Positions 3,037-55,971 of a DNA stretch of 64,000 nt are shown in pieces. This stretch comes from a virus (taxonomy: Duplodnaviria; Caudoviricetes). Under the pieces are notes generated by a model. It worked only from the letters and a program-made list of their open reading frames with translations. It was not told the origin of the DNA and did no database searches. Position numbers and translations under genes: made by a program. How positions within the stretch are numbered: position 1 is the first letter of the stretch; each line of letters begins with the position of its first letter. The stretch is from positions 64,001-128,000 of the IMG/VR virus record IMGVR_UViG_3300005077_000489, one strand, 5' to 3'.

Positions 3037-3053
3037 GTTAGGAGGATTTTGTT

Positions 3054-5623: not shown

Positions 5624-5795
5624 CAATTATTTAACTAACTTTGTTTTAAACAGTGAATGAACTTTCTATAAGGAAAGGGATAGGATTTCACCTTGATTAA
5701 TCGATATGGATGTCTATGCCCCCATAGCGTAAAACGTAAGTTTTTTGGCATCCAGTCTATAAATTAGGACCTTTTCGTTAGGAGGAAAAAATAAT

Positions 5796-9703: not shown

Positions 9704-9723
9704 TTTCTGTATGGTGTCTAATT

Positions 9724-9750
9724 AGGGTAGCCCGGGCGGCTACCCTTTCC
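9724..9750 (+). terminator. Hairpin between the two chaperone-like genes (weak intrinsic terminator/attenuator)
   Basis: AGGGTAGCC (9724-9732), loop CGGGC, GGCTACCCT (9738-9746), followed by only a short T run. Confidence 0.4.
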
Positions 9751-9768
9751 ACATAAAAGGAGGGGCAT

Positions 9769-10902: not shown

Positions 10903-13900
10903 GTGGCAGAAGAATACACCTTTAATATAAAGTTAAAAATAGATGTGGATGATTCTAAGGTATATAAACTAAAAGAATTGTCTGACAAGACTAATGATGT
11001 ACTACGTAACATAAATATGTCCCATGTGAAGGGACTTGGCTCTAGTATGTCTTTTGGGACCAGTGATAAAGACATTCAAGTTTTTAATCGTATCAAACAG
11101 GAAGTACAGAACCTAGAGGGTTATATAGATAGATTAAAGTCTGATCGAATGTTTACTCCCGCCTATATTGATGATGCCACTAAAAAGTTTTCCAAAGATT
11201 ATGATAGAAAGCAACTCAAAGAAGATTTAAAAAAAGAAATGCAGATGGAGCGGGATAGGTTATACCACTCCATTACCCATGCTACAGACAGTATGAAACG
11301 TAGTTTAGAGCAGCAGAGAAAAGAATTTATCGACTTACATAATACCTTAAAGCAAATTAAAAAACCTACCGATATATCTACATTTTCTGGTGAGCGTGTA
11401 ACTCTCAGACCAGAAAGAAGTCTGAAGGAAATGACAGCCCCTGATATTTTTACTCGTGATCTGGAATTAATGATAAATAAATTACTCTTAAAACCGAAGG
11501 CAGAATTAGGGAAAGAAATATTAAAAGTAAAAGAATACATGGATGACGTCTATTCAGAGATTAATACTGCCTTAGATAAGGTGGGTTATGAGTCACATCG
11601 TAGGGCTCAAGAAGAGGTTGGTAGGCTCCGCTTGAAAATAGAGGGACTTGCTACCGCAGGGGATATAGACCAGATAACACGTAATGTAGAATCTTCATTA
11701 AAAAGCGGGGATTTATTAAACCAAGTTAAAAAAATGCGTGAAGAGATAGTGAAAGCATCCACCGAGTTTGCTAAGGAACTGGGTGATGAGACGGATAAAA
11801 CTAGAAAGTCCTTTGCTAATTTTCAACGTAGTATTATTTTTGCCTTTAACAAACCGCAGTTCTTTGACCCCGCTGGAGAACTGTTCAGGGATGTGCAGTC
11901 ACTCAGCCAACGTAAAGGAATTGGTTCCCCTTACGGCGGTCGTTACGTTGGTGCTCCTAGGATTAAGTTTGATGAGGGCGGAATAGCCAAATATGAACTA
12001 TTTGATGTAAAGGCATTGGCAAGAGAAACTGCTAAATTAATGTCAGTAGCCGGGTTAAAGCAAGCCTTGAAGGCTGACCTAGATAGTTCCCTGCAAGATG
12101 CCTTGAACAAATATTTGGATGCTAATAAAATTTCTAAGAAAATAGAAACACTAGTTTCTTATTCTATTAAAGACCTGCAAAAGATACAACTAGATTTGCT
12201 CCGCTTTGCCGAAAAAGAAGTGGCTAGGCGAATTGGTGATGAAGAAACCAAGAGGCGTATAGAAGTATTTAATAAATATTTAGAGAGTATAACAAAACAG
12301 GCACTAGTCCTCCCTTCTATCGCTAAAAGTTCGCGTGGTGCTTCTATTATAAGAGACCCCGAACGTGGAGAATATCTGACTCTCGGTAGATATCTAGAAA
12401 CTAAACCAGGTATTAATGAATTGGATGATAGATTTATCAGACCTTTGTTAGACTATGTTAAACGTATGAATTATCGTACACAAGATATTCCGTCGCAAGT
12501 GAAAAATATTCAACGTACTGTTAAGGATTTCTGGGTAAGATCCCGCCCACAAGAAGAGCATGGTGTTGGGGTTGGTATGGAGTTAGCCGCCAGAGAAATG
12601 GTCGGTAGGATGAAGACAGCTTTTGATACGGTTGGCTCCTTCCTGGAACAGACTAGAGGACCTAAGGCTAGAAGAGCATTAACCGGAATAGATGAACTTA
12701 AGCAGCAATTCATGGTCGATTATGAGAAAGCACTGCGAGAGGCTGTGCGTGCTACTCACGAACGTGTTGCTAAAGAAGAAATAGTTACCGGGGCTAAAAG
12801 ATTACCCCCTGATTTGGAATCTCGTTTTAGGGAAGCCTTGAATTCTTTACAAGGAAAGGGTCCTAGATACCAATTATTACCAGAGCAAGTTGTTGGTTTT
12901 CTAAGGAAGGAATCTGAGAAAGTAGCACGTCAGATAGAATCTTTACCCATTGATAAATTAGAAGATGAATTAAATCGTATTGGACAGAGAGAGAAGAATG
13001 TAGTAGGTGGTACCGATTATGATGCTAGAGCATGGCAACGTGTCCTAGAGGAATTCAGTAGATACCGAAACGTAGATTTTTACAATATGTTAAATCGTGC
13101 TGCTTCTTATTCGAAAGATAGTATAAATGAATTGGAGAAGATACGTAATAGTTTATCTTCAGCCGGTCGCTTAGGAAATGAATCTTATTTTCAAGAATTA
13201 TTGCAACAACAATTTAAGAAGGTTTTTGACCCTATAAAAGAGAAGGTACCTGAAGAGCACGAAGCCATGCAGAAGCATGAGGTCTACGGTCGCCATAAGG
13301 TAATAACAATCCAGCCAAAAATACCTGGAATAGATGCCGGGCCTAGTTCCTACGGTGTTCCTGTCGATTTACAAGCTCTCAGAAGATTTATTGTTCAGAG
13401 AAATCTTGACATGGAAGAACTCTTTGAGAAGGAATATCTGAGGGGTACTGAAGCAGCCATGCGTAAATTAGGTACAACTATTGAGCGTCTTGCTACGGTT
13501 GGATTAAACGAAGCGGCAGCCGCAGGTAAACGAGATTTTGGTGATAAATTCATGGAATCTTTTTTCAGGGGTAAGAGATTACAACCTTTTGCTTCTTATG
13601 ACCCTAGGGAGACCGAGGCTTTTGGTTATTCTATAAACCCAGCTCGCCCCACCGGGGCAGCATGGGACTCCTTGGCTGGTCCAGAGTTTAATGCTATACG
13701 TTCTCGCAAAGCTCATAAATTTATCCGTAGCGGAGAGTGGGGACCGTACGGGACTGGTTTAAATGTTACTACAGTTCTTAAAGATGTTTCTGCTGGTTAT
13801 GAAGATTTATATGAGATAGGTAAAAGGTTACAGGAATTAGCTACGTTTAAATTTAAAAAACTTGTGGTTCCTAACTTGAAAGGCACAGAGGAAGAATTAA

Positions 13901-16900
13901 AAAATAGCGTTGTAAAGTATCTGCAAGAGGTTGGTCATGATATTTTTGGTGCTCCAATTAAATCTAAAGAACTAGCTGATGAAACTTATATAAAGGATAT
14001 AGTTAAGAGATGGGCACAGTCTCCTCAGGGTCCTATAGAAGAAAATATTGTTGAATTAATAAATACCTATTTGGGTCATGAAGCACGTAAGATTTCTACC
14101 GGTCAAGTTCTTAAGGGTGTAGCCTCTACAGCCTTTACTAGATTCGGTACAGAAGTAGAGGAATCGGTCAGGGAAAAAGCTAAAAAAGGATTGTATCCAA
14201 AGATAAAATTTATGGATGTGGGTGAATTATCAGATGTTCCTAAATCATTTGAAGAATTGATATCTGAGTTATTGTTGGTTCGAAAAGATTTAGACCCAGC
14301 AAAAGTTTCTAAGGCTCTAGAGATGATAAAAGGAACTCAAAATATGATTATGATGTCTTCTGACCATTTAAAACAATTAAAAATTAGTCCTATAGAATAT
14401 GGTACTGGTAGAATAATGGGGGAGGATGCTCCGAGCCTAGAGGAGCGTCGTAATTTTGTTGGTAACTTACTTGGTATAAATTTGACCTCAAAAGAAGCTC
14501 TAAGGAGTGCAGGAGATATTACTGCTCAAGTTAAAATGTTAGAGCAAGATATGGAGAGAATAAGAAGGCTATATAAAGAATCTACTGGTGGAGATTTAAA
14601 TAAAGAGGTTCCAGTAGACCTACGGATACTAGCCTCCGGGATAGGGAAGAAGTCACGTATGATCGGGGGTAACTTAGCAGAGATTATCGCAAATAATATT
14701 ATAGGAAACCTACGTTCCAGACCTTTAGAAGGTGAGACGTTAATGGAACAGATACAAAGGTCTCCCCTTGCTAAGGTTCTTGTGGAGAACACCGCCTCTG
14801 GTCGCGAAGTTATGAAATTGGCAGAACTATATAAGGGGGCTTTAGGATTACGTGGGAAGTATGGCGAAGAGTTTATATATAAACAAAATGATGCATTAGA
14901 AAAAGCGGTTGCAGGAATGATGCATGTTATGATTATGAAAGAACCTAAAGGGTGGGTACCTAAAGGTGCGGCCGAATTAGAAGCTGGTTTGTCAAAGATG
15001 ACAATAGATCCGCATGGATGGTTTGGTCTTAAGAAATTGTTTGATCCACAAGGTGCGTTGACACGTGAATTTACCATGCGGGCTTTTCCTGAAGCACGGG
15101 AAGCTGGTGCTTTCTTATCGGCATTTCGTTCATTTGCTAAATTACGTGAAGAAGAGATGACCAGAGCAGTGAAGACGGGAAAAGTTAGAATGGTCGGTGA
15201 AAAGCAATTAGTTGATGAAGACAGAGAAGATTATATTGCTCCTCTTAAAAGAAAGGCGACGGTAGCCGATCTGTCTAGAACTATTTTTGATCCATTTAAA
15301 TACGGACCTTCTATGGCTTTGGAGTTACCGGAGCCATCCGAGGATATGAAACGTTTGATAGAGGAAGAGATTAAAGAAGGAATAAAAAAAGGTATACAAG
15401 TAATGCCGGTCAAACGTTTGGTTGAAATTCCAGAGATTAGTGCACGACAGTATGTGACTTCAGAGACCGGTGAAGTATTACCCTCTACGGTATCCAGGTA
15501 TCTCTCAGAACTGGTGGATGCCACAAGAAAGTATCATATATTAGGTAGCCGAACTAATGATATAAATAAATTAGATATGCAGCGAGAGTTCGTTGGGACC
15601 GCTATTGGAGACTTCTATAATAGGATACATCCTATCAGGGACTTGAGCGTAAAACTTGATTTGCTCAGTAAACTGGAAGAGCAGGTTTTTTCCTTAGTGG
15701 GAAGTAAACCTATGCCACAGTTTTCCGGGAAATCTTCTGTCATCGCTGACGCACAGGACCCGACTAAAGTATGGTTTCCTACTATGTACAGCCGCCTCGA
15801 CGACGAAACAAAGAAATCTTTAGAAGAGGATATGCGTAAAGGTATTTCTATAAAAGATGCTTATAATAAATATTTTAAGGAGTTGGAACAATCAGTTTCT
15901 AATATAAATTTCAGGGCTCGTTTTCTTCGCGACCTTATAACGGGACCTGTAATTTATACTAAAGGAAAAGAGGATATTGGGCGTGAAGTAAAAACAGATA
16001 TATCAGAGGGTAATGATCCCCGCTATCAAAATATTAACCTAGTCCAAGATAAGATGTTATCAGATATTATCACTAACTTCAAACAGTACGAAGCTGAAAC
16101 AGATGCCTACGGGAAAACTATCGGAATAAAGTCTCGTTCTTTATTGGACTTACAGTATAATGAAATAAGACGTAATCTAAAAGAATATTATGATGAATTA
16201 TCTAATATGATATTCGGTAGAGGTATCCTGTCTGATGTAGTTTTGAAGAAGAAGATACCTGCTCTCTACCTGACAGCTCAACAACGACCTTATGACCCTA
16301 GCGAAGCAATAAAATCTGCTATAGACAAGTTAAACAAATTCAAAACAGAGGTTCCCAATGCTGAAGAATTGAAGACGGACTTAGATAAGGCTCTTCGAGA
16401 TGTAGAAACTTTCAAAGTAACAAAACCATCCCAGTGGGTCCGTCCCGGAGAAGTTCGTATAGGCGAGAGAGACCTAAAGGAATTACAAAAAGCGGGAATG
16501 GCTACTCCTGAGTTACAAAAGAGTGTGGATAGTGTTTATGCCTTGATAAATAGGCAGCCTACTACAGATGAATTTAGTTACAAGGCGATGCGGCTTACAG
16601 TGGATGATGCTCTAAAAGACCTGTCTGGAATAGCAGTAGTTCCCGGGTTACCAATAGGCGACTATCCAGTTAGTTCTAAGATGGAAGAGGCTTACAAAGC
16701 GTTAGAGGATTTACGTAGCAAAAAAGTTAAGGCTATAGAAGAAGAACTTTCTAAGTCTAAAGGTAAAATGACTTCTACTGTCACTAAGTTGCAGAGGGAT
16801 ATAGATGAGATAGACCGAGCGTCCAAGGACTTGCGGCCTATGTACCATGAAGCCTCTTTGGGTTTAGATTATGACGGAGATATGATTTCTATTCATGCTG

Positions 16901-19900
16901 CTACTGTAAAAGAAGCAAATGAGGAATTGAAGAGAATTCATGATATGCAGATGAAAGAGTATGGAACCACTAGAAGATTTTTGCATGAACAACTTAGTTA
17001 TGTTCCAGAATCAAAACGTTCTATGGGTGCCAAAGGTACTGAATTATCCGATGAAGAAATTATGGCTGTAGAAAAAATGCGAAGAAGTGCCTCTCCTACA
17101 TGGCAAGAGATGGACATTGTGAGTGACATTTCTAAGCAAGCTAAGAAGAATTTGTTAGATATCCATGCTACTACTCTTCCCGAGATAGCAGAAGATTCAT
17201 TAAAGCACTTTGTACACAAGGTTGATATGGGACAAGGTTATGAGGCTTTTAACCGTATAGGTTTCTTGTATCGTGGTGCCACGGCTAAGGATTTGGGTAT
17301 TACCCCTAAATTACATGAAACTTATAATTTATTATTAGGAGAGTTTTTGCGTGATACAATCCAAAAAGTCATAGGTGGAAAACACGGTTCGGCTGGTTCG
17401 GATATGAGTCCTATAGTGCAACAAGCTTTTTTCACTGGAAATATAGACGCGGTAGTAGATGCCCTGGACAAAGGGGATGGCGGTTGGGGAAGTTTTAAAG
17501 GTCAATCTGGTAGTAATCAACCACTATTTCAAGAGATAGAAGATAATTTAAGAGAATATCGTTTAAGATATCTGAAGCCAATGTCTAGAGATCAAGTAAA
17601 GAAGGAAGCCGAGTCCTATGGTATTTCCACATTTATGAAAGGTAGGGAACAACTAATAGAAGAGATAGTAGGTAAAACCTCTTTCAGAGCGATGTTTGAG
17701 AATGTATTTGACCAAGTAAGACGTATGGCAGTGGCTAATATAAAAGAATTATATCGTACAGGATTGGCAGGAGATTCTTCCTTATCTAAAAAGGGCTCCA
17801 TGGGCCTCGCCAAATTATTGGCTGGTACTGAGGGGTTCGAAGGAGAGACACTACAGACCTTAGGATTAAGAACTAAATTTAAATTTAATGAAGGAGACTT
17901 TGAGGCATTTGTAGACAAACAAGATGTTACTGATAAGATAATGGGAGTGTTGAAGGATAAATTAGGTAATGTCTCCAAACAGGAGATGGCTTTTCAAATA
18001 GCCGCAGCTGGAGAAGGGATTGCCAAGGTTCTACGTGGAGAACCCGGGAAACTAAAGACAGAGATAATAGAGCCAGGGTTTAGTACCGCTGGATTATATC
18101 GCGGTTTACAACCCATGTATAAACTGAAATCTTCCGGCGGGGCGGAGATGGCTGTTAGTTCTTATTCTAAACGCTCCGAAGGAGAAAATCAGTATACCCC
18201 CGGTGGTCCTGCCCTTTCTTATGCAGAAGTATTAGATTATGTATTGCGTAATAAGGCAGGAAAAAATATAGAAGTAGGTCCTTCTTTAGGTACCTTCACT
18301 AACCCGAGAGAGCAAAAAGCCTATGAATTTGTAAGTCCTGCTATTCAAGCCTACGAGGATTTTGAAAAAGCATATAATAAGATTATGTTGGTAATGGACA
18401 AGAACCTGTATGCCTTGGAGGGATTGCTCGCACAAGTACAGACTTTTGGTAAGGAAACCGCGGGTTTTAAAGGTGAATCTGCCAGAGCTGGTCGTTACGT
18501 AATGTATGATAAGGATACGCAACAAGTCTTCCTGGATTCTGCTGTAAAGTCTGCTTTTGAGGATAATAAGCGTGCTCTTTCTTTGGCTAGAAATGCTGGT
18601 GAGGCTAAAGAGGCGGAAGATAAACTTTTTGATACTGTTAGAAGAGTAAATGAATTATTAAAAAGGGGTGCAGCTTTAAAGTTTATAGATATTGATGAAA
18701 GCAGGAGAGCAGACAACCTCAGAAGTACCATAGATAAACTAGCTGACCCTTCTTCTAGATGGTCATTAAAAGTAGATAGTCTACTAGAGAGAATGGTCTA
18801 TGATAAGAAAGAATTCGGGACATTAATACGTAAGTGGTTAGCAGATGTCGGTCGGGGTGATTTATTAGATAGGAGTAATGTGGAGATAACAGCCGAGTTA
18901 AGGAAGCACAAGGGTATAAGGAAGGAAGCTCTAGAAGAAGCAGCATCTTATATAATTTCTGGTAAGGGTAATATAGCAATTGGTTTGAGACCCTTGATTA
19001 GAGATGCACGTTCCGTGGATATAAAGGAAGAGATATCCAAGGGTCTTATAGGGAAGATAAGATCGGAGGACTTCTCAAAATCTTTCTCACCCTTATTTAT
19101 GGAAAGTTGGAAAGAAGCTGTCATGCGTAATGCACAAACATTAAGTGCTTCGGACTGGAGAAGTATTTATAAGGCTCATCCAGTGTTACGAGATATGCAG
19201 GCTCCTGGTACTTCGTCATATGAAGACGTTATTAAACAGTTACGTTCCGAGGGTATTTATGGTGGTAGTCGTGGGGTCACCCATTTTATAAATAATATAT
19301 TGAAAGAAAGACAAGGACAAATTTTAGAGCACCTTGGCGTGGAGAAACCTGAAGATTGGGAAACCCTTAGACTAAGCCAAGTGGAAAATAAAATGAAATC
19401 CGGTATATTAGAGGCGGCGGAATCTACAAGGTGGCCATTCAGACCCCGTGCCGGTGGAGGGGTATATTTAGAGGATATATTGGACAAACCGGTTCACAAA
19501 GTTAGAGAAGATGTGGAAAACATATTTGATAGTGCTTTTGACCTATCCCCGGAAGACTGGAAACAAATATTTAACTTTGATGAAAAGGCACAAAAAATAG
19601 CGATGAATGCTGAAGAGCCCCTGAAGGCTTTATATGAAGCCGGTATGTACGGTGAAAATCGTGGATACACAAGATACATTAATATGATATTTAAGAAACG
19701 TATGGAGCATATTCTAAATGAATTAGGGCAGGAAGCCCCTGATTTCTATACCATGCGTTTCCAAAAATCTAAACAAGAGTTTCTTAGTTCTCTCGAAGAA
19801 GCAGCATTGGATAATTTATTAAAAGGAACTCCGTCAACCGGAGGACCTTTTGGTGGTAAGCGGTTTACTCCCGGAGAGGCTTTTGGGGAGCGGGCACCAG

Positions 19901-22900
19901 AGAACATAAGGAGAGCATCTAGAGGTTTCGTTCCTGCTGATTACCCTCATATTAAACCTATTTATGATTTTCCTAAATTCTTAGATACAGAATCTTCGGT
20001 ACAATACAAAAGTCATGGTGACCAAGTAAAAATGAGTGCTGTACCTCTAAGGTGGGGTAATATAGAAATAGGTTATGGTACTAAAAACAAACCATTAGAT
20101 CCAGCTACAGCTAATGCTAGATATAGGCCTTTTATAGAAGCTACCCAGGACCTAGTCCCAGTAATGAAAGATTGGGTAAAAGAGAACAAGCATCGCATAG
20201 ATTTATATGGTGAGTTTGGCGGGTTAAAAGATAAATTAGTATGGTTTGATGCTAAGGTAGCAAACAAAACTTTGAGTCCTGATGATTTTAAAAAGTTAGC
20301 TGAAGAGTTAAATCTGAAAACTACTGAAGAATTATATAGAGGACCAGTAACGAAAGAGATAGTTGACAAAGTATATCGTCAAGTCACTCCCTTCAGAAAA
20401 TTAGAAGAAGGCGTTGTGGCTAAAGGATTGGAGATTGATGAAAGAACAGGCTTCCCTAGAATGGCTAAGTTTAAGACTAAGCCTTATCTAGTGGGGGAAG
20501 AGACGCGTTATCCTTGGCAAGACTGGGGTAGTGCAGAAAGGAAAATAGAGGAGAGGCATAAGAAACTTATGGAGAGAGCATTTTCTCCATTTGATAACAT
20601 TGAAGAAGGGATAGAACAGGACCCTACAAGATCTTTTACACCCACGGAAGCCCAGCGTAGAGAAGGCTTATATCCAGAAAATTGGCCGGTTGTAGAAACT
20701 ACCAAAAAACGTGTTGAAGAGTATCTTAAAGGTTTAGATGATAAATTTTATCAGTCTGCCGAGAGAGCGAAAGAATTTCCTAAAGGTACTAAGTTCTTAG
20801 TACAAGCCCCGGGTGTAGAGCCCATTCCTTCCTATGCTAAGGATGCTGTGGTTATTTCTAAAGAAGAATTAAGGAAAACCATCTTTGGTAAAGGGATGCC
20901 AGACTTACCTTATGACCCTGTTCTTGTATTAAATTCTAGAAGACAGGTTCCTAGGTACCCTGAAGCAATTCCTATTTCTAAGGAACGCGGTTTTATGTTT
21001 CCTGGCGAGGCTAAAGAGGGTGATGTAGGTAGGTTTGTCATACACCAGCATGATGCCTTAAGGGCGGGTCCCCACCATGACATGCGTATTGAGTTAGGTG
21101 GTCAATTACAGTCTTGGGCAGTTCCAGAATTTATTCCGGAAAAGATGGGTGAACGTAGGTTAGCCATAGGTCCTACGGCACACCATGCCATTGACTACTA
21201 TCAGAAGGGAGATTACGATATTCCCAAAGGTTTTTATGGTGCCGGTCATATGTCAACATTTGATACGGGTAAAGCTACTGTAGAAAGTGTAAAAGAAGGT
21301 TATGTTACTGTACGATTAGAGGGAGTAAAAGGACTAGCTGATGGTACTTATTCTATCATAAAATATGAACCTAAAGGAGAAGATACAAGAAAAGGACAGT
21401 GGTTAGTGTCTAAGGTTAGACCATTGTCAGAAAGAGACCCAGAAAGAGCAAAGAAATTATACGGTTTTAGTCCATCCATAGAGTTAGATGACGAATTGGG
21501 GGCAGGAGAGGGTAGGTATGGACAGGGTAATATAAGGTTATTTACCCCTGGTAATAGAGCAGAGATGCGGGCTTTTATGAATGTATTACAACATGAAAAA
21601 GGACACGCAGCAATAGATTTTGCAGCACCTAATATTGCTAGGGATATAATGGCTGGAAAACAATTTCCTGGTGTTGATACCAAGAAACTGCAAAGTTATT
21701 ATATGCAGAAGTATGGGGACCGCGGAGATGATGAGGAGGCAGCAGCGAATGCATTAGAAGAGGCTATTGCAGGCGGGCTACGTACAGACGAAGACCAAGA
21801 AATATTAGACGAAATTAGCAAACTGCAAGATGTCATAGGTGAAAAAGCCGGAATGGCATTTGCAGGTACATCACCACAGAACGAACTTTCCTATATTAGA
21901 AAACTATTCTCACCAGTACAACAACCGTACACAGTTTATACAGATGCAGGCTCTAGAGGTAACCCCGGTCCTGGGGGTGCTGGTGCCGTAGTATTTGACC
22001 CACAAGGTAAGAAGGTTTCAGAACTTAGTAGATACTTAGGAGAAACCACAAGTATGGCTGCAGAATATCAAGGGCTTATTATGGGATTAGAAGAAGCCCT
22101 TAAACATTCTGCCAAAAACATTCAACTTAAGTCTGATTCACAAGTAATGGTGGGGCAGATGAGAGAGGAGTTTAGAGTTAAGAATGAACAAATAAAAGAA
22201 TTAAAAAGACAAGCAGACTTACTTAAAGCACAATTCGAAGGTTTTAATATAGACTATATTCCCAGAGAACAAAATAAATTAGCAGATAAATTGGCTAACA
22301 GGGCTATGGACTCATATCTTAAGTCATATTCGCCTGCCGAAGATGACGTAGACCGTTTTGGTAGTCCTATTATTTATGATTATAATAAATTGACAAGTAG
22401 CCCTAATTGGCTTCCCCGCGGTATGACTGCTAAGGCTGTTTCCGCTGCTGTAAATGGACAATTTATAGGTGCGGCATCTTATTCAACTGCCTCTCCTGAA
22501 TACACAGGGTTTGGGGAATTATCTATAAAACCGGAATATAGGCGTAGTAGTAGAGTTGCTGGTAATTTGATGGAGAAGGTAATAATAGATTTAATCAATA
22601 GTGGTAACTTCAAACATACACGTCCTCTCACCCCAGTCGCTGATACTCCAGAAGCCATCTCTTTTTGGGAGAGTATAATAAAAAGAACACAGAAGCCTTC
22701 AAGAAATATAAAAGAGGCATTCTTAGCAAATAATGTGACTCCTGATGATCTTTCCATGGTTGCTGGTAGATTACAGGCTGAAATAGACATAACCAAGGCA
22801 TCTAAGTTTACTGATGTAATAAAGAGGATCATTGAAGAACCTCATAATTTAGGGGAAGAACTTTCTAAACTGACAGAGACTAATCAAGCAAAAGTAATTA

Positions 22901-37900: not shown

Positions 37901-40900
37901 AGTTCAATGCTTATAATACTATAATAGATGACCTTACGCAGCAATTGCGCAATGTGGAATCTTCTATGACAAAAATTACGGATGCTAGGAATAAGATTTA
38001 TGCAGAACAGATAGCATCAGATTTACGAAAACAATTAAGTACTGTTACTAATGAAAGAAATACAAAAGTAGGAGCAATGGAAAGGGAGAGAAGCTCATTA
38101 GAAGCCAGACAATCTTCTTTGATAAAAGAAGCTGTTTCTTTAGATAAACAGAGAGTTTCAATACAAGAGACATGGCTAAGAGGAACATTTACCCAAGAGG
38201 AATGGGCGGCACAAATTAATGCTTTGAATGAGAGGAAGCAAGCCCTGAAAGAACTAAAAAATGCTGCAAGAACCAGAGGTGGACAAGCTCAAGTCAATGC
38301 GGAAACACTTATTGGTAGCAAAACTTATAGAGGAAAACTTTTAGCAAATGTGGACGTAGAAAGTGGGGTGAAAAAATTAAAACTAGAAAGAAATAAATCT
38401 TATATATTCGAGGCAATGTATGGTTCTACAGATGATATACAAAAACAAGTGAGAAGAGCTAAGTATGAAGAAACAAAATTAATGAAGAGAAGAGTGATAT
38501 ATGCAAAACAGTATGGGGCTGGTCCATTAGTATCTGATACCCAAGATAAATTAGATAAAATTAGAGAACGTATAGCAAAGTTACAAGGTAGAGAAAGAGA
38601 TTCTATAAATTGGGATTCCTTTAGAAAACAATATGCTGAAGAGATTGCAGACTTAAAGATAATAGAAGATTTCCAGACTACTAGGAATAATGTAAGAGAA
38701 CAAATACGAAAATATGACGCGGAATTAACTGCAACAGAGGGAGAGAAAGCTCAATTAAGGAATATGAGAGGAAGCCAGAGTGAAGCCAAGAAAGCCTCTA
38801 AGAAGGTAGGAAAGATATTAGGTACGAAAACTTCTACTACTCCTGGGACACCAGATACACTGGATGAGCTAGTAGGACTTACCCAAGATGAAATAAGAGA
38901 AATTAGTCGTAGACGGGAGTCTCGTATGAATTTGGGTGTAGAAACTACATCTAGAACAGGTATGAGGACCACAGGATTAGGAAAGTTACAAAGTATGGCA
39001 GCCCGCCGCGAAGAAATGTTGGTGGGTATCGAAGAGACTTTAACTAAGGCTCCTAAAGACCTACAGAAATCTATAAGAGAAAGATATTTGCGAACTATGG
39101 CTGAAGAAAATGTAATGTCTGCTATACCTAATGCTAGTCAAGAAGTACAAAATCTTGCCATCGAACGTGCGGTCAAACTTACTAAAGGTGCAGTTCCTCC
39201 TGTTAGAGATGTGGCAGAATGGTTAGTAAGTAGTGCTAAAGAAGGTAAAGCGGATGATATACTAAAATTGAGTGGTCTCAATGTAGATGACTTTGTAAAT
39301 TTGAAAACAATAACAGGCATCGATGATGCTATTGCTAAAAATCTAGGAGACAGATTACCAGAAATTTTAAAATCTCAAAGGGATGCTTATAACAATATAA
39401 AACCTCAAATAAAATTATTAGAGGCTGTTTATGATGACTTTAGAGATACTTCAAGATTATTTAATGAAGTTGGTGCGGGTGGTAAAAAGGGCTTAGTCTA
39501 TACTGAAACACAAGCTAAAGCAATGATGACTAGGCTTAGAGAGGCACTGGGTACAGAATTGGATGATATAATTAAACGGACTACTCCTGGGGGTGCTACT
39601 GACCTTGATATATTAGAAAGGAATCCTGTTGCAGTTCAAGAGATTGAAAAAGCTCTCAAAGGTGGTTTGAAAACTAAGAGGAAAGAATTAGGAAGATTAG
39701 AAACATCTTTGGATATAAAAGGTTTATTAGGGGATCGACAAAGTGCAATCCAGGAATTAGAGAGATTACAGAATTTAATGTTAAAGGAAGGTAGTAGTGA
39801 CCTTGCAAAGAACGATTTAACTTCTTTAATGATGCAGCAAGGTAATAAAATAAAAGATATAGACAATCAAATAAAGATGATGATCTCCGACGAGGGCTTG
39901 TTAGCATCTACTATAAAGAAGTTTATTAATGAAGGCAAAGTTTTACAAGACGAAATAGACAGATTACAAAAACAATATAAAGATGTGGAGCGACAAGTAG
40001 GGCAGGCGAAATTATTAAAGAATATAAAGACACCTGTACAAGCGGACTTAGAGAAGTTAGATGAACCAGTAAGAAACCTGTATAGGAATTTAGGAAATAA
40101 TTCTGATGAATTAGTAACCCACTTGGAAAAGAATTTATTAAATGCAAAGTCACAACTAGATAATTTACGTGAGGTGGCAGCAGGTAGGGCAGAGGTTCCC
40201 TTAAAACCGGCACAACTATTAGTACAACAAGAATTACTAACGAAATTAGAAGATATAGCTAAAGCATTTCGCTCCGGAGATAAGGCGGTTACGGATAAAG
40301 CAATCGGTCAACTCTCAAGATTGTTTGCAGCAAATGTAGATATACCTAGCGAGGTTTTACGTAATAATAGAGAATTTATTATGAATGTATTACAGATGGG
40401 CTCACAAGCACAATCTCCTTATTATGCCCCTGTACAATCACTATTCAATGTGGTTAAGGGTTCTGGGAAAAGTGCAATAGAGCAGGCTAACATTTTAGAT
40501 TCCGTGGTGGGAATGTTTGATGATGCAGTAAAAAGAGGTCATAGTTTTAATGATACATTAATGAAGGTAGAAGGACACTTATTAAAGTTTGGGTATGATA
40601 CACAGCAAGCAATGCGTTCTATACGTGATGCTGGAGATGATTTAGCAAAATTAACTAGAACTGCTGTTTTTGCTGCAGAAGGTACCCGTCCTGGTGGAGG
40701 CGCATTTGCTACTGTAGGTCCTAGAATGCACGGTCCTGGTATAGGTGGTATGATGCTAGCAATGGCTGGCACCGAGCTAGGTGCACAGGGATTACAATCA
40801 GCCTTTGGTATAAGTCCACTAACATCCTATGGCACTATCCTTGGTGGTGTTGCATTACATCAATTGATCAGCGGTGGCCGGGGACCTGGCTCTGAGATTG

Positions 40901-43900
40901 GTGTGATGAGCAGAATAGGTAGAGGTTTGGCGGGTGTGAATGAATCTGGTTGGGGGCGTACCGGTGGCCTATGGGGAGATTTGACTTCTGCGTTTAGACC
41001 CTCAGAATATGCTAAGTCTATTGGTTTTCCTGCTAAAGATTGGGCTACAAGAACTGGCGGGCTTTCCGGTATTAGTGGTTGGTTTGGCAAATGGCGAGAA
41101 ATTAGTACATATAAAGCTAATTTGCCAGCGACTGCCGCCGCAGAGGTGGGGCTTGCCGAGAAATGGTTAGGTCCTGGAGGTAAGCATCTAGGTGCTAATC
41201 TTTCTATGGCTGCTAAAGCACTGCCTGTTGTTATGTTGGGAGTTGAATCTATTTTTGCTCAACAACGGGAATCCGAGCGCGGCTACAAAGGTGCTACTGG
41301 ATTCATGGGCGGTTTTCTAGAGGTATTAACTCCTTCTGCTATGGCTATGATTGCTGCCTATGTTGCTGGTTCTATAGCAACAGGGGGTATTATGTCTATA
41401 GTGGCTGCAGCAGCCGCTGGTGCAGGTGCTTATACCTTGGCTACCCCATTAGGCGAGAAGGTAAAAAATGTTTACTATGGTGCAACTGGTGCTGTTCCTG
41501 TTCTTACAAAAACCATGCAAGAAGAGGAGTTAAAGGCATACAGCCCTGCGGCTAGAAGAAGTTTAGAATTTAAGAGGGCTAATGCTGAATTAGAGAGACT
41601 AAGACAAGAAACTCAAACGACTCTTCCTTCTAGGGCACTCAGTTTGATGATGCCTCTAGTGGGTGCGGGCGGCATGATGTTTACATTTGACCGACTATCC
41701 CGGAACATGGAACGAGAACAAGGCTTTACTAACGCACAAAAAACTGTGGCATCTCTAGGACAGTTGCTGTCTGATGGCGGGGATATCACGAAGATGCCGT
41801 TTCTGGCTAAGTATATGCAGCAAACCCCAGAATTAAAGGCTGAATATGACAAAATAGTAAAGTATAAGGAAGAGATGGATTCGGCTGTGGGGGGTAAGGA
41901 TAAAGAAGAGAAACGTAAACGCTATCAAGATGCTGTGAATGAAGGTCTCAATAAGTTCACTACTGCACTTAAAAGGTCATCAGACTTAGTGGAAATGATT
42001 ACCATAGATCAATACACGGAGAACGAGGCATTAAAACAGTCCTCTTTATCTCTAGTAAATCTTGCTGAGGTAGCCGCAAGAACAAAAACAATATTTGAGG
42101 AAATGCCAAAGGCTTGGGCTATCCAGGAGCAACCTTGGGGAGAGAGATTATCCGGACCGGAGGTCCCTAATTATAGGGGTCGTTTTGAAAGAACAGTTAC
42201 AGATTTAATGAAGGAAGAGGCACCAGAAGTCTACAACAGCGGTATGGCTGCTATAGAGGCAGATAAGGTGGCTTATTCTAAATTACTAAAAGAGAGAGAA
42301 AAAGAACGTAATATAATTGGAGATATGAGAAACCAGCAAGAGTCCATGAATCGATCTGTGGGTGCTAATTTAGATAAATTAAAACTTACTGGTGAAACTT
42401 TAGAAAAAGTAAAAACATTAGTACGCTTGGAAGGAGAATTTATTAATGCTCCACAATCTGAGGTGGGCAGTAGGGTTTTGGAATTAGATAAATTAGCAAA
42501 GGATTTGGGAAAACTTGGTAATTATATGTCTACTCAATCTTCATATGAATTCAAGGATGTTTGGAGAGTAGAAGCAAATAAATTAAGTAATTATTCTACC
42601 TTAAAGATGCCTTTAGCCGGAGCACAAGAAACCCTGAATGCTTTATCAGAGTTTGAGAATAGATTAGGGGAAAGAGTAAAGAAAGAAGGTCTTACTGAAG
42701 AAAATAGGAAAAACTTAGAAATTGTAAAGAAGGCTAAACCAGGATTACAAAAACAAATTGATGCAAGAGAGGGTGCTGAAAAAGTATTAACCAGATTACC
42801 TAGTGAGGTGGATGAACTCATTCGTAGACGTAGTAGTTTAGATTCACAGAGAAAATTGATAGAAGACGAGACCAAAGCCTTAGAAGAAAACAGGCATTCC
42901 AGAGCCGCCATCATACAGCAGTTGATGGAGTATACCGAAGTAATGAAGGTATTACATCAAGCACAGCGGCAGCTACTAGAAACAGAGACTGTACGAGTAT
43001 CTAATATGCCGGGTGGTGGTGCCCAAACTAGAAGAATGTATGAAGGAAGACTTCCTAATCAAATGATGTTTGGTACAGAGACCTCGGCAATACCACTTCA
43101 AGATTTAATGCCAAAATCTGTAACGCAACTTACTGCTATGGACTTATTTGCTCTATCTAATAAGACGGGCATGAATGATCTGAATAAAGTATACACTGCC
43201 TATAAAAAGGCGGAACAGAATATGTATGAAATACGTACTTCATTAGATACTGCTATGTCAACAGCAACATTGGAGAAATCCCGCATAAATAAGTTTGGCG
43301 ATCTAGTTAATAAAGGTGTATTTAATCAAAAGGATGAACTGACTAATTTGGTGGATACTGGTATTAATTACGTTAATAAGATACAGGGGGTGTTATCTGA
43401 TTATGGTGACCAACTCCCGGCAACTATAAAAACGGCATTAGAGAAACAAACCAATGAATATAAAACTCAATATGATAGGGTAACTAAACAGGAAACCAAG
43501 TTAAAGGAAGCGGAGCAAGAATTAACCGATCTTTACAAAATTGATACAATTCCAAAGGAGCAACAACTTAAGACCTTGGAAAGGGGAGTAGAAGGCAATA
43601 AACCAGAAAGAATTATTGCTACTGAGAAACGTATTAAAATTGGTTTAAACCAGACCATAATAGACCTAAATAAAGAAGGACTTACACGTTCCGACCAGTA
43701 TTTAATGTTGGAAGAGCGGAAAGCCACTGCTAGAAATTCAATGGAACAATATGAGAGAGCTGGTAATAAATCAAATGCTGCTTCTGAAAAAGATAAATTA
43801 GAGGAGTTGGAAGTAATTTCCAAAGTGCTCCTGGAGAAAACGCCAAAATTACCAGAATATTCTAAAGTAAAGAAAGAACTGGACGATTTAGCTAAACAGA

Positions 43901-46900
43901 AAACAGATAAATCTGCAGCGATTGAAAATCTTAAATCTGATATAAAGAAAGCAAAGGAATCTATGGATGCAATAGAAAAATCCATAGTCAAACTTCCTAA
44001 GGATAAACTACAATCAGCACAAGCAGAATTAGATAAAGCTCGAAGAAGGGTAGGGGAATTGGAAAAACAGCGGAGTTCCAAGCAAGTAGAGTTTGAGGCG
44101 GCAAGTAAAGCCCTCGTAGATACTCGTAATAAGTATTTGGATGCTATCTTTTCTAGTGTTGCCGAACAACTTAAGATAGCAGCGGATGCTATAGGCGAGA
44201 GAAATAAGGCGGCATTTGGTTATAAACTAGATCAAGGTAAGCTATATTCTCCGTTGGCGGGCATGATGTCAGGGGTATCGATGCCAACACAATTAGATAT
44301 CGGAAAAAATTATGTTGAAATGAGTGCCCAAGAAAGGTTTGCCGCTTTTAATCCTGAAGAATATTCTACTGCTGCAAAATCTCAAGAAGCCTATAACTCC
44401 GTATTGAAGCAATTATCTTATGTTACAGATGAATTAGTCAAATCAGAAGTAGAGATGATAATGCAAAGACAGGCGTTGGCTAAAATAGAAGACCAAAACA
44501 GTGAGCAGTACAAGAAGACTAAACGAACACTTGAGGACTTAGAAGTACGCAAAAGAGCTACTGAGCAGGCTATGGAAGAATATAGAGCCAGAGCATTAGA
44601 AAAACGTGTGGAAGCAGAAAAAAGAGCACAAGAAACTAGAATGGCTGTATTAGGGCATGAAACTAAGCGTTTTATAGAATCTACCACTAGGTCGATGGAA
44701 GAAGGAATTATTGGTATAACCGACAAATTTAGTCAGGCTTTTCGTATGTCTCCTTTGGTTGGTGCTACTGCTGGTTTGGCTACTCCTTTTAATATTAATA
44801 CTGGGAAAACAGAATTGCAACTGAGCCCACAAGAACGCGTTGCCCTGAATAACAATCAGTTATATAGAGCAGCATCTACAACGCAAGAAGAATTGCGTTT
44901 GGCTTCTGAACGTATTTCCAAGCTAGAGGGTAGAAGGGCTACTCTGCAGGCTGAGCAGCAAGAAGCAGCCCGCCTCGGTAACACTAGGTTAGTAGACGAA
45001 TATCAGAATAGGATAAATGCACTTACGCAAGAAATACAAAAAAATACTGATGAATTTAATAATTTGAGAAACTCTTCCAGAGAACTGATGGAGGAATTCA
45101 GGCAACAAGTCTGGGTAGAAGAGGTGAAGCGGCAATTATTGGACGTTGGTCTAGAAATGAAAAAAACTATAATAGGTTTTGGACAAGCCTTTGAACGTTC
45201 TAAAATATTTTCTCCTGTAACAGGAACTATGGCAGGTATAGGTTACTCAGGGGAAATCCCCAGAATACAAGAACTCCCAGAATTAAGTTCTAGTCAATTA
45301 TATGCTAAATATCAACCGGCGGGATACAGAGCAGGCATGGAGGCTATAAATCGTAGGAAGGCGTATGAACAAGCTATCTCTAGATACGACACAAATATAC
45401 AACAAATGGAAGCCCAATCTGCTATGGGCGGTGAGGCTGGTAAGGAAGCAGCGGCAAAGTTACCAGGATTATATGAAGCACGTCAGAAGTTGCTAGACCA
45501 GTATGATGCTGAGAAAAGTATATTAGAAGGTATAATAAAGGCTACTATGGAAGCCAATATGCGTTTTGAAGTTTTACGCGATGTCATACAGTCTGTTCAT
45601 AAGACAGTTAGTGCTATAGCACAAGGTATGGGACAATTAGTAGCAGCGGGGTTAAAGAGCCCGGTAGCGGGAGCCGCCAAGGGCCTCGTTCCTTATCAGT
45701 GGCAGGTCGCTAAACAAGAATTTGAACTTACTCCACAAGAAGTAGTAAATAAGTATGCTCCTAATATGGCAATGTCTGCTCATATGCAGCAACAAACTAT
45801 AGACACAATGGCAAACATGGCTGGAGAATTTACTACCAAAAGACAAGAAGCACTAATGAAGGCCCAGTTGGCAGAGACTCCGGAGGAACGTAATAGGTAT
45901 CTTAAGAAAGCAGATTATTATGGTGAGGCTTCTACTAGATTTGCTGATGCTGCCGAAGAGGCTCGTGCTGCATTGGAACCGTTGATTGAAAAATTAACTG
46001 CGTTAGCCAAAGTTGCTGAGGTTGCACAGAAATTTGAACAACTAGACCGCCAACTAAATATCTTAGCTAATACTCGTTGGGGTATGGATACTATACGTAT
46101 GGAGACCGAGATGGGTAAGCACCCGTCTTCATTACAAAGGGGGAGGTATGTAGAGGTAGGTGGTCGTTTAGAGTATATACCCGGCTTGGGCAGTGGTTCT
46201 ATGAATATACCCGGTATCCCTGGTGCCTATGCTGGTAGTTCCGGGTGGTACCAAACAGAGTACGAAAAGATTCCCGGCACGGAGTATGAAGTTCCTAGAG
46301 CATTCCAACCTGGTAGTAAAGAATGGCAGGAAATGAGAGTACTAGAGTTAAAACGGGATTCCGGCGAAGTAAAAGGTCCTGACTATGAACGGCAAAGAGC
46401 GATGATAACTTGGAATGCGGGTGAAGCACAAATACAATATTTGCAGAAGAGAGAGGACCAAAAATTTGAGAGACAGAAAGGTATAGCAGTACAAGCAGAA
46501 ACGGCGATAGAAGAAGCTCTTATAGGTTATAGCGATACATTACCACAACTACGGGGAATGTTAGAGCCTTATCGGGAGATGATAAAAGAGGATATGCAGC
46601 ATGCTGCAGATATCGTTGGAGAAGGTCCCGGCGGGGTATTACAACGGAGAGGCTTCCAAAGTTTGAGCGAAATGAAGAATGTTGCTTCTGAGTTGAAACA
46701 AATGATAAAGGCTGAAGATGCTCAAAATACTGCCCGTTATACTTGGTACCCAATAGTTAGACAATTAAAAGAATTACAAGAAGCATTAACAGGACAGTTA
46801 TCGGAAGAAACTCCAGAAGAAAAGGAAGCTAGAAAGCAAAATGAAGACGCTAAGAAATACTTTACTGAGAGATTAGATAAAATTACCTTAAAAGATAATA

Positions 46901-49900
46901 TGCCAAAGGATGAAACTGAGACTAAAACAGGTCGCAGAGATTACGCCGGTGCCCCTAGCGTAGAGCAAATAGAGAAAGCAAAAGAAGAAATTGATAAGAG
47001 AAAACCCTTTGACTGGTCTGGTATAAATGCAGGAAAGGGTATAAACCGGAGTCTTGCTGATTTCTCTAATGAAATATACAACAAGTATGTAGAGAAGTGG
47101 AAAGAGCAATCTAGGGTAGAGGGCTTATCTGGTAAACGTTATGGAGGGGCTGGTGTGGATGAAGATATACTAGGACAAGTCTATGGTTCTAAAGATATTC
47201 CTAGTATACTAGGTAAGAGTATGTTCAAACGCCTAGAACCTATGACAGGTGCTGAAGAAGCAGAGTGGTTAACATTCCTTAAAAATGCGGGGAAAGAAGA
47301 CGGTGGTGTTGCAGAATTTGCTAAAGCACAAGTAGAAAATATGCGTATGGCAAATACGTACGGAATACGCTCCTCCCAAGGTAGAGAAATGTGGCGTATC
47401 ATGAATTTTCAACCCGCTATGGATACACGACAGGAGAAGGACTGGCTGCAAGGTATGGAGGATAGTAAGAACCAAGTTAAATTCCAAAAGATGATGGGTA
47501 ACGCTACAGAGTGGGGAGTAAAATCTGCTACTGGTAGAGAAAATTGGCGTATAATGCATAAGCATGCTGAATTGATGAAGGAATATATAAGTAATCCACT
47601 ATGGAAACTGGTAAAACATTTTACTGGTGAAAATGCCCCAGATACTAAAGATACTACTCCAGATACCAAAGCTCCCGAAGTTAATAATGCTAATTCTATG
47701 TCATCAGATATCCTAGAAAAACAACTCGGTGTGCTACAAGAAATAAGAGATTGTATTTGTAGTGGTATGAAAGGTGGTGTAGGCGGAGTAAGTGGTGCGG
47801 GAGGTGCAACAGGTAGCGTTTCTTCCGCAGCAGTTGGTTTTGGTGTAGGAGAAAAAACTATTACACCGACGCCGACTACTATTCCTATTACACCGTCTAT
47901 CCCGAGACCTACTCCTACTACAATTATACCTACTGCTGGTAATGAAAAATTATTCTGGGATACAGAATGGAATTATCCACCAGAAGCAATAGGATTTGGT
48001 GCAGAATCTAAGACCACAACAGAATTACCGGATTGGGCTAAACCTAAACCATACAGACCTCTTCCCGAAGGTCTCGACCAGAATGAGATTAATCGTTTAT
48101 TATATGGCAATCCTAGTTGGATTCCCGAGTTGTCTGGACCCACGAAATTCCCAGAGGGTTTAGACGAGAATGAACTTAACCGATTGTTGTATGGTAATCC
48201 TAGTTGGACTCCTGAACTTACTCCTCCGACAGTATTTCCTCCTGGGTACACAGAGGATGTTAGCCCCGAAGATGTACTTGATTTGGAAGAACCTATATAT
48301 AGATCTCCTTCAAAATTATATAAAGACAGACTTAAAGATATGATGGATGCTGCGGTGGAGTATGGTTTCCCTGGCGGGGATAATTGGATATCTACAGGAA
48401 TGGATATGAGAAAGAAGAGAATACCCGGAGCTATCAAAGGAGTGAGAACATATAAAGAGTATCCTGTGAGAAGATTTAAATTTTTGTCTGGGGAACCTAC
48501 TGAAAAATCGATAGACTGGGATATTAGGTATAATCAAGCGCAAGACGAACTTGCGTCAGAGGAGGAATTTTGGGGAACTGTAGGTGGTTACGATGAAGGG
48601 TTCAACCAGCCGATTAATATAAAAAACTCAATGGGTGATTTACTATTGTATGCTGGACTTATCGATGATGCTGTAGCCATTGCTGGTTCTATCTCTGGGA
48701 TGTTTCGTGCTAAAAAGAAAGAGACATTACCTGTAGATTATAATAAATTATATGGTATGACTGGTGAGCAGGCTACAGAATATGCTATGCAATTCCCAGA
48801 AGAGATGCGCCAGCAAATAATGGATAAGTTTAATGATATAGAAATACAAAGAATAAGTGGTGAAGCTAGTGCTGGTGTTGAAGGAAAATGGGCACAAAGG
48901 GAGGAGAATTACAAGAGAAATGCTGAGAACAGAATTCGATTAACCAGTTTGCCTACTACACAAACACAACCAGAAGAAAAGAAAGATTTTACTACTATAC
49001 CTAGAGGGAGAGGGGAGGAAGAAAAGGCTACGGAAACAGAAGAGCAATATAAGAGGTACAACTGGCTCACTACTCCATTCGGTGAGAGAGTAGAGAAGGC
49101 TCTTGCTACTCCTATGGGGTTCAATGAAAGGTCATATCCGGCATCTGATGTGTTTCCTATAGGCGGCGGTCAGGCTCGTATATATGCGAAAACAGGTGGT
49201 CTTGGCGCTATGGTACCGGATAGCAAAGGAAAGTCTTATTTTGGTTTTAATGTTGAGGCGAAGGCTGGTGATATGTATGAGGAATTACAACATAGTAGAA
49301 CAGCTAAAATGTCTAAAGACCAATTACTTTCTATAGCGAATTCCGTGGGGGCATTACCTGGTGGTAAAGACCTTTTAAACGCCGCTATGACTTCTAGAAG
49401 GTCACAGACTGCATATAATGCTTATGGAGACCTTTCCAAGGAAATGCTTATGGAGGTCTTGGCTTCTTTAGGGCGCGGTGATAAGGAAAATATAGACAGA
49501 AGGAAAGCCTTACAGTCTAGCGAATTCGCGGAGTTAGATAGTGCTACATTATCTCTATATAAACAATCCGATGCTTTTAAATCCACTGTATTGAGGAAAG
49601 AATACGAGGAAGGACTAAAAAGGTATCTTGGAGAATTCATTGGTGCTACTAGTGCTCTGGGTCCGTCTGATATCTCGGATATATATACTTCTGATGTTTA
49701 TCCTGTTGGTGGAATGGGTTATTACGGAAAGAAAGAAGGACAGCCAGTAGATTATAGAGATTTTGTTGGTTCTGATGAAGAAATAATAGATTTATTTCCT
49801 GGCGGAGAGCCGTCTGAGGATAGAACACCGTGGTATAGTAGTCTAAGAGAACGAATTATGCAAGAAAGTGCCATGGAAAGGTTCTCTTCCGAACTGGACC

Positions 49901-55957: not shown

Positions 55958-55971
55958 AAAGGAAATTTATT

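Follow-up and report, generated by a model that had tools for sequence, protein, structure and literature searches.

Here we describe a giant open reading frame (ORF) of an uncultured tailed phage, located within a 64,000-bp stretch (the window) that corresponds to bases 64001-128000 of a single 211,229-bp IMG/VR contig (IMGVR_UViG_3300005077_000489; completeness estimate 86%). The ORF (10903..51753, plus strand; start codon GTG, stop codon TAG) encodes a protein of 13,616 aa and occupies 19% of the contig. On balance, we favour the view that this protein is the tape measure protein (TMP) of a family in which a single-chain, cell-type two-barrel RNA polymerase (RNAP) precedes the TMP core, that it is analogous to gp96 of Thermus phage P23-45, and that in this lineage it delivers additional enzymatic cargo.

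The TMP core was located at aa ~5400-5987 (27100..28863, +). This region matches 13 PHROG tape measure families (best E 4e-60) and contains, at aa 5496-5690, the PhageMin_Tail domain (Pfam PF10145, E 3e-25), in agreement with an earlier note on this DNA, which had placed a TP901-type core at aa ~5467-5760. Kyte-Doolittle analysis detected hydrophobic clusters at aa 4852-4871, 5875-5950 (three segments, directly after the core), 8221-8296, 8787-8806 and 10149-10169; transmembrane segments in the tape had also been proposed. The giant protein resembles TMPs both in the recognition of its core by family profiles and in the hydrophobic segments that follow this core. In ordinary TMP relatives the core lies ~450-650 aa from the N-terminus. 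The remaining ~7,600 aa of tape (28864..51750, +) are encoded by non-repetitive DNA, contain more hydrophobic clusters and match no family; the same applies to the last 3,616 residues, for which no family match was obtained.

The frame runs without a stop codon for 13,616 codons (40.8 kb), whereas the other five frames of the same span contain 332-1,377 stops, and the single open frame reported earlier was therefore upheld. The GTG codon is preceded by the sequence GGAG 10 nt upstream and by an in-frame TAG two codons upstream, and the N-terminal start MAEEYTFNIKLK is shared with P0012, the closest relative with a complete start. G+C content and GC skew are uniform along the ORF. Its DNA contains neither tandem repeats nor long direct repeats, with the exception of a diverged 87-nt duplication (48064-48215), so the length of the ORF is not a repeat artefact. 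P0012, derived from an independent Logan assembly, has an unbroken frame of 6,667 aa that is collinear with aa 1-5420 of the giant. A metagenome scan for relatives spanning the cargo-to-core junction found none, and a tblastn search of 50,697 phage records with aa 1-3000 gave no match.

At the protein level, the 87-nt tandem duplication corresponds to two PEGLD.NE.NRLLYGNPSW.PEL units. Other short repeats (VKVF.TNWP and W.IM) were observed in the C-terminal 1,300 aa, the cysteine-containing region of the giant, which may represent its tip-proximal or receptor-side end.

Putative RNA polymerase module and related fusions

The two-barrel RNAP-like module (aa ~820-2040; 13360..17022, +) was delimited by its BLAST homology to a set of giant proteins from IMG/VR (L023-L036, described below), and its motifs were compared directly with RpoB and RpoC of Escherichia coli K-12. 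Five hallmark segments are present in the same order as in the E. coli subunits: (i) GYED at aa 965-968 (NFED in E. coli), (ii) K1063-x7-K1071 followed by GV (KMAGRHGNKGV), (iii) PVD...SRM.GG.LAE (PVD...SRMNIGQILE) within aa 1237-1260, where the wider pattern is PVD...SRM..G..E, (iv) LINRQPT (LLNRAPT) and (v) LDYDGD..S.H (ADFDGDQMAVH). The first three, β-like motifs (13795..14682, +) are kept in all relatives. The β′-like pair (16531..16938, +) comprises the NRQPT segment at aa 1881-1900 and the DYDGD metal site at aa 1989-1993, the latter being the sole DxDxD among the 13,616 residues. Insertions between the motifs amount to ~165 aa in the β part and ~90 aa, of helical character, in the β′ part.

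This arrangement was evaluated with a chain test, in which the five E. coli segments are placed in order and without gaps on the sequence tested, and the best BLOSUM62 sum is compared with those for shuffles of that sequence. For aa 930-2100 of the giant the sum was 110 versus 64.6 ± 8.6 after shuffling (z 5.3), a value reached by none of 500 shuffles. The distant homologue P0009, tested as a whole protein, gave z 9.9, and 13 of the 14 IMG/VR relatives, tested as entire open frames (3,300-5,900 aa), gave z 4.6-8.1, while seven other proteins longer than 1,000 aa of the same phage, used as controls, did not exceed z 2.0. The proven RNAP of gp96 scored z 0.3, which indicates that the test is insensitive to gp96 and that the family of the giant is much more "cellular" in its motifs.

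An unbiased phmmer search of 1.84e9 representative proteins with the RNAP region detected P0009 (E 2e-8) and only 6 homologues of this region altogether, and BLAST comparison of the module with the IMG/VR giants gave E values of 1e-8 to 1e-15. Among the Pfam families, PF00623 (Rpb1 domain 2) ranked first at sub-threshold values, with E 0.0025 for aa 1860-2070 of the giant (two collinear stretches), 0.1 for P0009 and 0.007 for P0012. When the whole genome was searched in six frames with PF00623, the only two matches were the NRQPT and DYDGD sites. Alignment of the family profile with RpoC (hhalign) gave E 6e-4 over 32 columns. Judging from these sequence comparisons, we consider it likely that the module is truly homologous to two-barrel RNAPs and that its active site is intact. 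The β- and β′-like barrels that the earlier note had placed at aa ~950-2000 thus stand as regards their motifs, which are collinear and conserved, but the barrels themselves were recovered by no profile or structure method; of the domains named there, profile searches recovered RNA ligase, RNase H, phosphoesterase and TMP, with the RNAP remaining below significance.

IMG/VR was scanned with a degenerate pattern derived from the β′ alignment, which returned 14 loci (L023-L036). In 13 of them a single open frame contains the β and β′ motifs, then ~1,450 residues and then a TMP core; the co-occurrence of a TMP core and DxDGD in one ORF, for which the earlier note had recommended a search, was thus observed. 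In these 13 frames D[FY]DGD is located at aa ~2,060-2,490, and the TMP cores are 31-36% identical to that of the giant (E 1e-69 to 1e-91). Full RNAP-TMP frames are present in five of the records (6,910, 7,430, 7,532, 7,660 and 7,722 aa), whose genomes extrapolate to ~265 kb. The region from RNAP to TMP core is collinear and unbroken in at least 10 contigs, which, together with the lineage of the giant, constitute a previously unannotated family of predicted RNAP-TMP fusions.

P0009 was considered as a candidate stand-alone RNAP gene and rejected, as the 5′ end of its contig is open and the protein shares 31-41% identity with internal parts of the IMG/VR giants. This contig contains a stop codon (L002:4849-4851) in a region where the in-frame alignment with these giants continues; the stop represents either a sequencing error or a real truncation. 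In another locus, L030, a 2,524-aa frame begins just before the β′ motif.

Enzyme cassette and chain-wide features

The part of the giant between the RNAP module and the TMP core contains three recognizable enzyme domains, all of which had been proposed in the earlier note (at aa ~3036-3191, ~3377-3506 and 3676-3803, respectively) and were recovered by profile searches: (i) an Rnl2-type RNA ligase domain at aa 3033-3176 (19999..20430, +; PF09414, 28.5 bits versus a cut-off of 27), (ii) a LigD-type 3′-phosphoesterase domain at aa 3381-3485 (21043..21357, +; PF13298, LigD_N, E 9e-16, 58.4 bits) and (iii) an RNase HI domain at aa 3675-3801 (21925..22305, +; PF13456, RNase_H/RVT_3, E 1e-23). The ligase domain gave no phmmer match in PDB. 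The phosphoesterase domain matches the archaeal and Pseudomonas LigD phosphoesterase structures 3p43, 3p4h and 3n9b (E 5e-15 to 1e-11) and displays the His/Asp/Arg signature HQH...HHDMR. The RNase HI domain matches PDB 3hst (E 7e-25), 3u3g and phrog_531, and its four acidic residues were found to be present on inspection by eye.

Two HExxH motifs accompany these domains, at aa 3564 (21592..21606, +) and aa 4172 (23416..23430, +). They lie in similar, paralogous sequence contexts; the first is kept in the close relative L001 and the second in both L001 and P0012. Two zincins had been claimed at these sites, and it is the motifs that are conserved, the fold having no Pfam match. A GNAT domain claimed at aa ~3844-3928 (22432..22686, +) was not recovered: no Pfam family matched aa 3800-4100 at E ≤1, and a segment comprising aa ~3812-4089 is skipped in both P0012 and L001. 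As for the label "anti-defence toolkit" applied to the region in the earlier note, its ligase, phosphoesterase and RNase H components were confirmed and its GNAT and zincin folds were not; the label itself is interpretative. Two similar segments of ~85 aa, which constitute an internal duplication, were observed between the RNAP module and the ligase (window ~19100-19900; aa ~2745-2985). They share the pattern ...DW..I...G.YG..RG.T.[FY]IN...K.R...IL..LG... and are conserved in L001.

The composition of the cassette differs between the close relatives of the giant, of which only a handful were found (51-68% identity). P0012 retains the ligase (below the cut-off, at 20.3 bits), phosphoesterase and RNase H, and it contains an additional ~800 aa with two PolyA_pol-type nucleotidyltransferase domains, which match poly(A) polymerases and CCA-adding enzymes in PDB (E 6e-12 and 5e-11). 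L001 (JGI; 68% identical) is devoid of the ligase and carries extra inserts of ~370 and ~1,700 aa with many hydrophobic segments and FSP-containing repeats. In L003 the region is split into many overlapping ORFs, probably by indel errors of long reads. The IMG/VR giants showed no BLAST match to aa 2,100-5,250 of the giant. The ligase/phosphoesterase/RNase H cassette therefore appears to be confined to a narrow lineage and to vary between close relatives.

Two features of the chain as a whole were also noted. The tripeptide [FY]SP occurs 11 times in the giant, compared with 2.45 ± 1.5 expected from composition (reached by none of 500 shuffles), and it is similarly enriched in L001 (11 versus 1.05). 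Seven of the sites are in the cargo region at domain borders, i.e. after the ligase, after the phosphoesterase, around RNase H and after the second HExxH; RNase HI is bracketed by sites at aa 3669 (immediately before) and aa 3809 (after). This distribution supports a role of [FY]SP as a linker or processing site, although enrichment does not prove cleavage.

The second feature is the avoidance of cysteine. The giant contains 8 cysteines, all after residue 12,283, where the 1.49% cysteine content of the rest of the proteome predicts ~180 in the preceding 12,283 residues. There are no cysteines in P0012 (6,667 aa), P0011, P0004 or gp96 (5,002 aa), and 0-2 in each IMG/VR giant. A near-total lack of cysteine thus characterizes every RNAP-bearing giant TMP that was examined, the unrelated gp96 among them, and may be a general property of tail-threaded proteins.

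Genomic neighbourhood

The genes encoding the terminase and portal lie ~36-40 kb upstream of the giant on the same strand, which places the giant in the late structural block. Two genes directly upstream (9017..10878, +) encode proteins of 228 and 369 aa whose N-terminal parts are weakly similar (cross-hits with E 1e-7 to 1e-9; pairwise E 0.006). Paired tail-assembly chaperone genes normally precede the TMP gene, and we infer that these two are a candidate pair of this kind. Further upstream, a gene for a 576-aa protein (5796..7526, +) is likely to encode the major tail protein. Copies of this gene are 38-44% identical (52% over one short end fragment), and 65% identical in the close relative L003; the protein has no PDB or PHROG match. 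A possible internal duplication in it was rejected, being weak (z about 2.5) and exceeded by some shuffles. All three genes are found in the same order, at 32-44% identity, upstream of the related giants that were checked; the exception is L001, whose contig begins inside the giant gene and so shows no upstream genes. None of the three products matches any named tail family.

Several other genes of the region deserve mention. Between the genes for the 576-aa and 228-aa proteins there is a 325-aa ORF (window 7744-8721, +) with a weak match to sulfotransferases (PF03567, E 0.0018). It looks like a lineage-specific insertion, because tblastn found no counterpart in the related loci checked. A 953-aa hybrid sensor kinase (window 175-3036, +; receiver, three PAS, GAF, HisKA and HATPase_c domains) is encoded inside the structural block, an unusual finding in a phage. 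The structural module is interrupted by three genes that probably encode homing endonucleases: two related ones that match phrog_4645 and have HNH or D5-like parts, at window 55951-56907 (+) and genome 38636-39943 (L007:13636-14943), and an HNH-HTH gene (L008:6942-7991).

The genome contains four more very large ORFs, of 4,741 aa (window 60195-64000 and beyond; genome 124195-138420), 1,892 aa (152538-158216), 3,141 aa (160882-170307) and 2,187 aa (170232-176795). Their cysteine content is normal, those of 4,741, 1,892 and 3,141 aa have no Pfam match, and together with the giant the four account for ~36% of the contig. All ORFs of at least 200 aa in the first part of the genome (1-21000) are located on the minus strand, and those elsewhere in the genome are without exception on the plus strand; among called ORFs of any size, 55 of 191 are on the minus strand. 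The minus-strand block of ~21 kb is a candidate early region, and when its first 20 kb were searched for promoter-like repeats in common, nothing convincing emerged.

Interpretation and comparison with known systems

The mode of action that we propose for the giant is as follows. The chain would run through the tail lumen, its C-terminus placed at the tip, and would be expelled on infection, the hydrophobic segments forming or lining a channel in the envelope. The N-terminal ~5,400 residues would emerge last, beside the incoming DNA end, where the RNAP could start pre-early transcription. An exchangeable cassette, composed of ligase, 3′-phosphoesterase and RNase HI, with two nucleotidyltransferases in addition in the sister phage P0012, would be delivered at the same place. 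Ends of RNA (tRNA) or DNA left by nucleases of the host defence would most likely be healed and sealed by the phosphoesterase and ligase, and RNase HI would remove RNA:DNA hybrids. The cargo domains are separated by [FY]SP, and the embedded HExxH modules may release them by cutting at these sites. Avoidance of cysteine would fit a chain that is kept extended, uncross-linked and translocatable. The earlier note had already viewed the tape measure as a delivery vehicle, which accords with the precedent of gp96, and the architecture that it described (RNAP module, cargo and TMP core in one chain in a tail-gene slot) holds. The ORF with its domains and motifs, the family, the synteny, the variable cassette, the [FY]SP enrichment and the avoidance of cysteine are observations; ejection, like the virion location, enzyme activities, processing, targets and tail length of the giant, is something that we infer.

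A number of results weigh against this reading. No Pfam RNAP family scored above threshold in the giant, and PF00562 (β barrel) found nothing in the genome. Searches of PDB with aa 800-2600, A3, A4 and A6 (phmmer/hmmsearch) returned no RNAP, and hhalign with RpoB, RpoC and gp96 gave short motif alignments only, of low probability. AlphaFold2 models of aa 930-2100 (8-row alignment) and aa 1780-2110 (5 rows) had a predicted local distance difference test (pLDDT) score of ~50, with the motif regions below 50. For the aa 930-2100 model, Foldseek and VIA-align found nothing but helical look-alikes, a result that is uninformative either way at such pLDDT, and a feature search of the ESM Atlas gave no usable match. 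When applied to the full 13,616 aa, the chain test was not significant (z 1.3), so that the RNAP case for the giant rests on homology to its relatives and on the motif columns conserved there. Unlike in P23-45, a second RNAP was not found in the genome, and no kinase domain was seen that would provide a full heal-and-seal pathway. Finally, aa 6,243-13,616 are covered by no relative found, continuity in this part resting on the open frame, uniform composition and cysteine avoidance, and the frame of L001 is broken by a 2-nt indel at aa 2648/2649, right after the RNAP-containing part. At this site (L001:6690-6715; window ~18844) the frame ends and a GTG-started frame continues; the break may reflect an error of sequencing, genuine splitting of the gene or programmed frameshifting.

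Four other explanations were considered. The giant could be a polyprotein whose N-terminal ~5,400 residues are cut at [FY]SP during assembly and packed separately in the head or tail lumen, with only the core-onward part ruling a tail of ~1.2-1.3 µm. Such processing would agree with the enrichment of [FY]SP and its position around domains, with the two conserved HExxH modules and with the short distance between N-terminus and core in ordinary TMPs, and the L001 break and the start of the L030 frame before the β′ motif suggest that the front part is separable. We nevertheless judge it rather unlikely, given that the whole P23-45 chain, RNAP included, fits its ~800-nm tail, that a single frame is kept in P0012 and most IMG/VR relatives, and that a protease fold is unconfirmed by Pfam. 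It is less probable still that the DxDGD module is not a DNA-dependent transcriptase and represents instead an inactive relic, or a polymerase for RNA-dependent synthesis or priming. The large insertions between the motifs, the RNAP assignment by motifs in place of profile or fold, and the failure to find a second RNAP in the genome for later transcription would all be compatible with this; yet none of the catalytic positions compared has been lost (ED pair, two Lys at a spacing of eight residues, Arg of SRM, NRQPT, three Asp), and their conservation among relatives that share just 21-30% overall identity points to selection on catalysis.

Two further alternatives concern the role of the protein and the integrity of the frame. 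The protein might not be a virion tape measure at all, but a head-internal ejection protein or a non-structural polyprotein with a TMP-like domain. A tail of 2 µm would indeed be unprecedented, and neighbouring genes encode no recognizable tail-tube, sheath or baseplate families. We consider this idea quite improbable in view of the 13 TMP families matched, the hydrophobic segments that follow the core as in TMPs, the position in the late structural block and the conserved upstream trio with its paralogous pair reminiscent of tail chaperones. Least credible is an assembly or annotation artefact, in which a chimeric join or an undetected error would have made the frame too long. The contig is metagenomic and frame breaks do occur in the related L001 and L003, but a 40.8-kb stretch remains stop-free against hundreds of stops in every other frame, no long DNA repeats are available to seed a misjoin, G+C content and skew are even, collinear unbroken frames occur in independent assemblies (aa 1-5420, and RNAP to core in at least 10 contigs), and cysteine avoidance runs across the chain to aa 12,283.

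If the giant is a TMP that rules tail length along its whole chain, the tail is predicted to measure ~2.0-2.2 µm, at 0.15-0.16 nm per residue (the gp96 ratio); the corresponding value is ~1.2-1.3 µm if only the core-onward part counts. A wider, tentative proposal, which we put forward with considerable doubt, is that the tape measure serves as a modular injection platform, in which a backbone of RNAP and TMP receives exchangeable enzyme cassettes separated by [FY]SP processing sites and released at the DNA entry pore, where they would repair tRNA, RNA or DNA damaged by host defences as transcription begins, and that the ~2 µm tail is the longest of any known virus. In the literature searched, virion RNAPs fused to a TMP are documented for one small group of Thermus phages only, and the present data would extend the same solution to a sequence-unrelated family of uncultured jumbo phages, comprising at least 10 IMG/VR contigs and the lineage of the giant. 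If delivered, the cargo would be the first case in which a tail protein brings an RNA/DNA repair kit into the cell, and it would open a direct route to studying how phages forestall nuclease-based defences in the very first seconds after infection. The 13,616-residue chain also puts the ruler model of tail length to an extreme test, and its 12,283 cysteine-free residues, a trait shared with gp96 and the relatives, suggest a general constraint on tail-threaded proteins.

Several known systems resemble parts of this arrangement. The crAss-like phi14:2 gp66 and N4 vRNAP are stand-alone virion RNAPs of short-tailed phages (that of N4 being T7-like, not two-barrel), and they share with the giant the principle of a particle-packed RNAP injected to transcribe the first genes. 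A 3′-end-healing phosphoesterase acts with an ATP-dependent ligase both in T4 tRNA repair (Pnkp with Rnl1/Rnl2) and in bacterial LigD. The giant has a comparable pair of ligase and phosphoesterase domains, and the CCA/poly(A)-type nucleotidyltransferases of the sister phage would fit tRNA 3′-end repair; it differs in that no 5′-kinase was recognized and in that its enzyme domains belong to a structural protein instead of being soluble early proteins. The polyvalent proteins of phages and conjugative elements likewise combine many unrelated enzyme domains in one chain, are presumed to be delivered with the DNA and vary in content among close relatives. Their metallopeptidase-like HExxH modules are proposed to separate the domains, a role for which the two HExxH motifs of the giant are candidates. 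The scaffold of the giant is a TMP and its repair pair consists of a ligase and a LigD-type phosphoesterase, whereas the survey of polyvalent proteins makes no mention of tape measures or RNase H and reports that in these proteins 2H phosphoesterases and RNA ligases never occurred together (Iyer et al., J Bacteriol 2017, PMC5512222).

The nearest relatives in organization are the IMG/VR giants (L023-L036, G001-G005), which have the same order of parts, the same upstream trio and near-absent cysteine, with 21-30% identity in the RNAP module and 27-36% in the TMP core. They differ in the distance from DxDGD to the core (~1,450 aa versus ~3,500 in the giant), in the lack of the ligase/phosphoesterase/RNase H cassette at BLAST level and in a post-core tape that is about half as long.

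The closest functional parallel is gp96 of P23-45, a 5,002-aa TMP whose N-terminal ~1,200 residues form a two-barrel virion RNAP with DFDGD at aa 779-783. This RNAP is active in vitro, occurs in virions and has been crystallised, its proposed task being the transcription of pre-early genes at the TMP pore; homologues of gp96 occur in P74-26, G20c and TSP4 (Chaban et al., Nat Commun 2024, PMC10770324). The earlier note had assumed that the P23-45 enzyme is separately encoded, knew of no described TMP with a two-barrel RNAP and called the giant a candidate new system; the assumption is wrong, gp96 is a published precedent, and the term is therefore too strong. Both proteins are giant, essentially cysteine-free TMPs encoded in the tail-gene slot, with a single-chain two-barrel RNAP (DxDGD; predicted in the case of the giant) N-terminal of the membrane and tape parts and a proposed role in injected pre-early transcription. 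They show no detectable sequence homology beyond the DxDGD loop (hhalign, 18 columns, probability 1.3%), and the giant would thus be an analogue or a very distant relative of gp96, not a member of its family. Its RNAP is much closer to cellular β/β′ motifs (family chain z 5.3-9.9 versus 0.3) and starts ~820 aa into the protein, in contrast to residue 1 in gp96. Moreover, gp96 has an M23 peptidase and no PF10145 match, while the giant has PF10145 and no M23, is 2.7 times longer, carries ligase, phosphoesterase and RNase H, and belongs to a genome in which no second (non-virion) RNAP was found. No TMP longer than 10,000 aa, and none with ligase, phosphoesterase and RNase H, was encountered in the literature searched, although absence there is not proof. 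The polymerase-in-tape-measure arrangement is already known, and the giant is an extreme, cargo-loaded case of it, twice the size of its own family.

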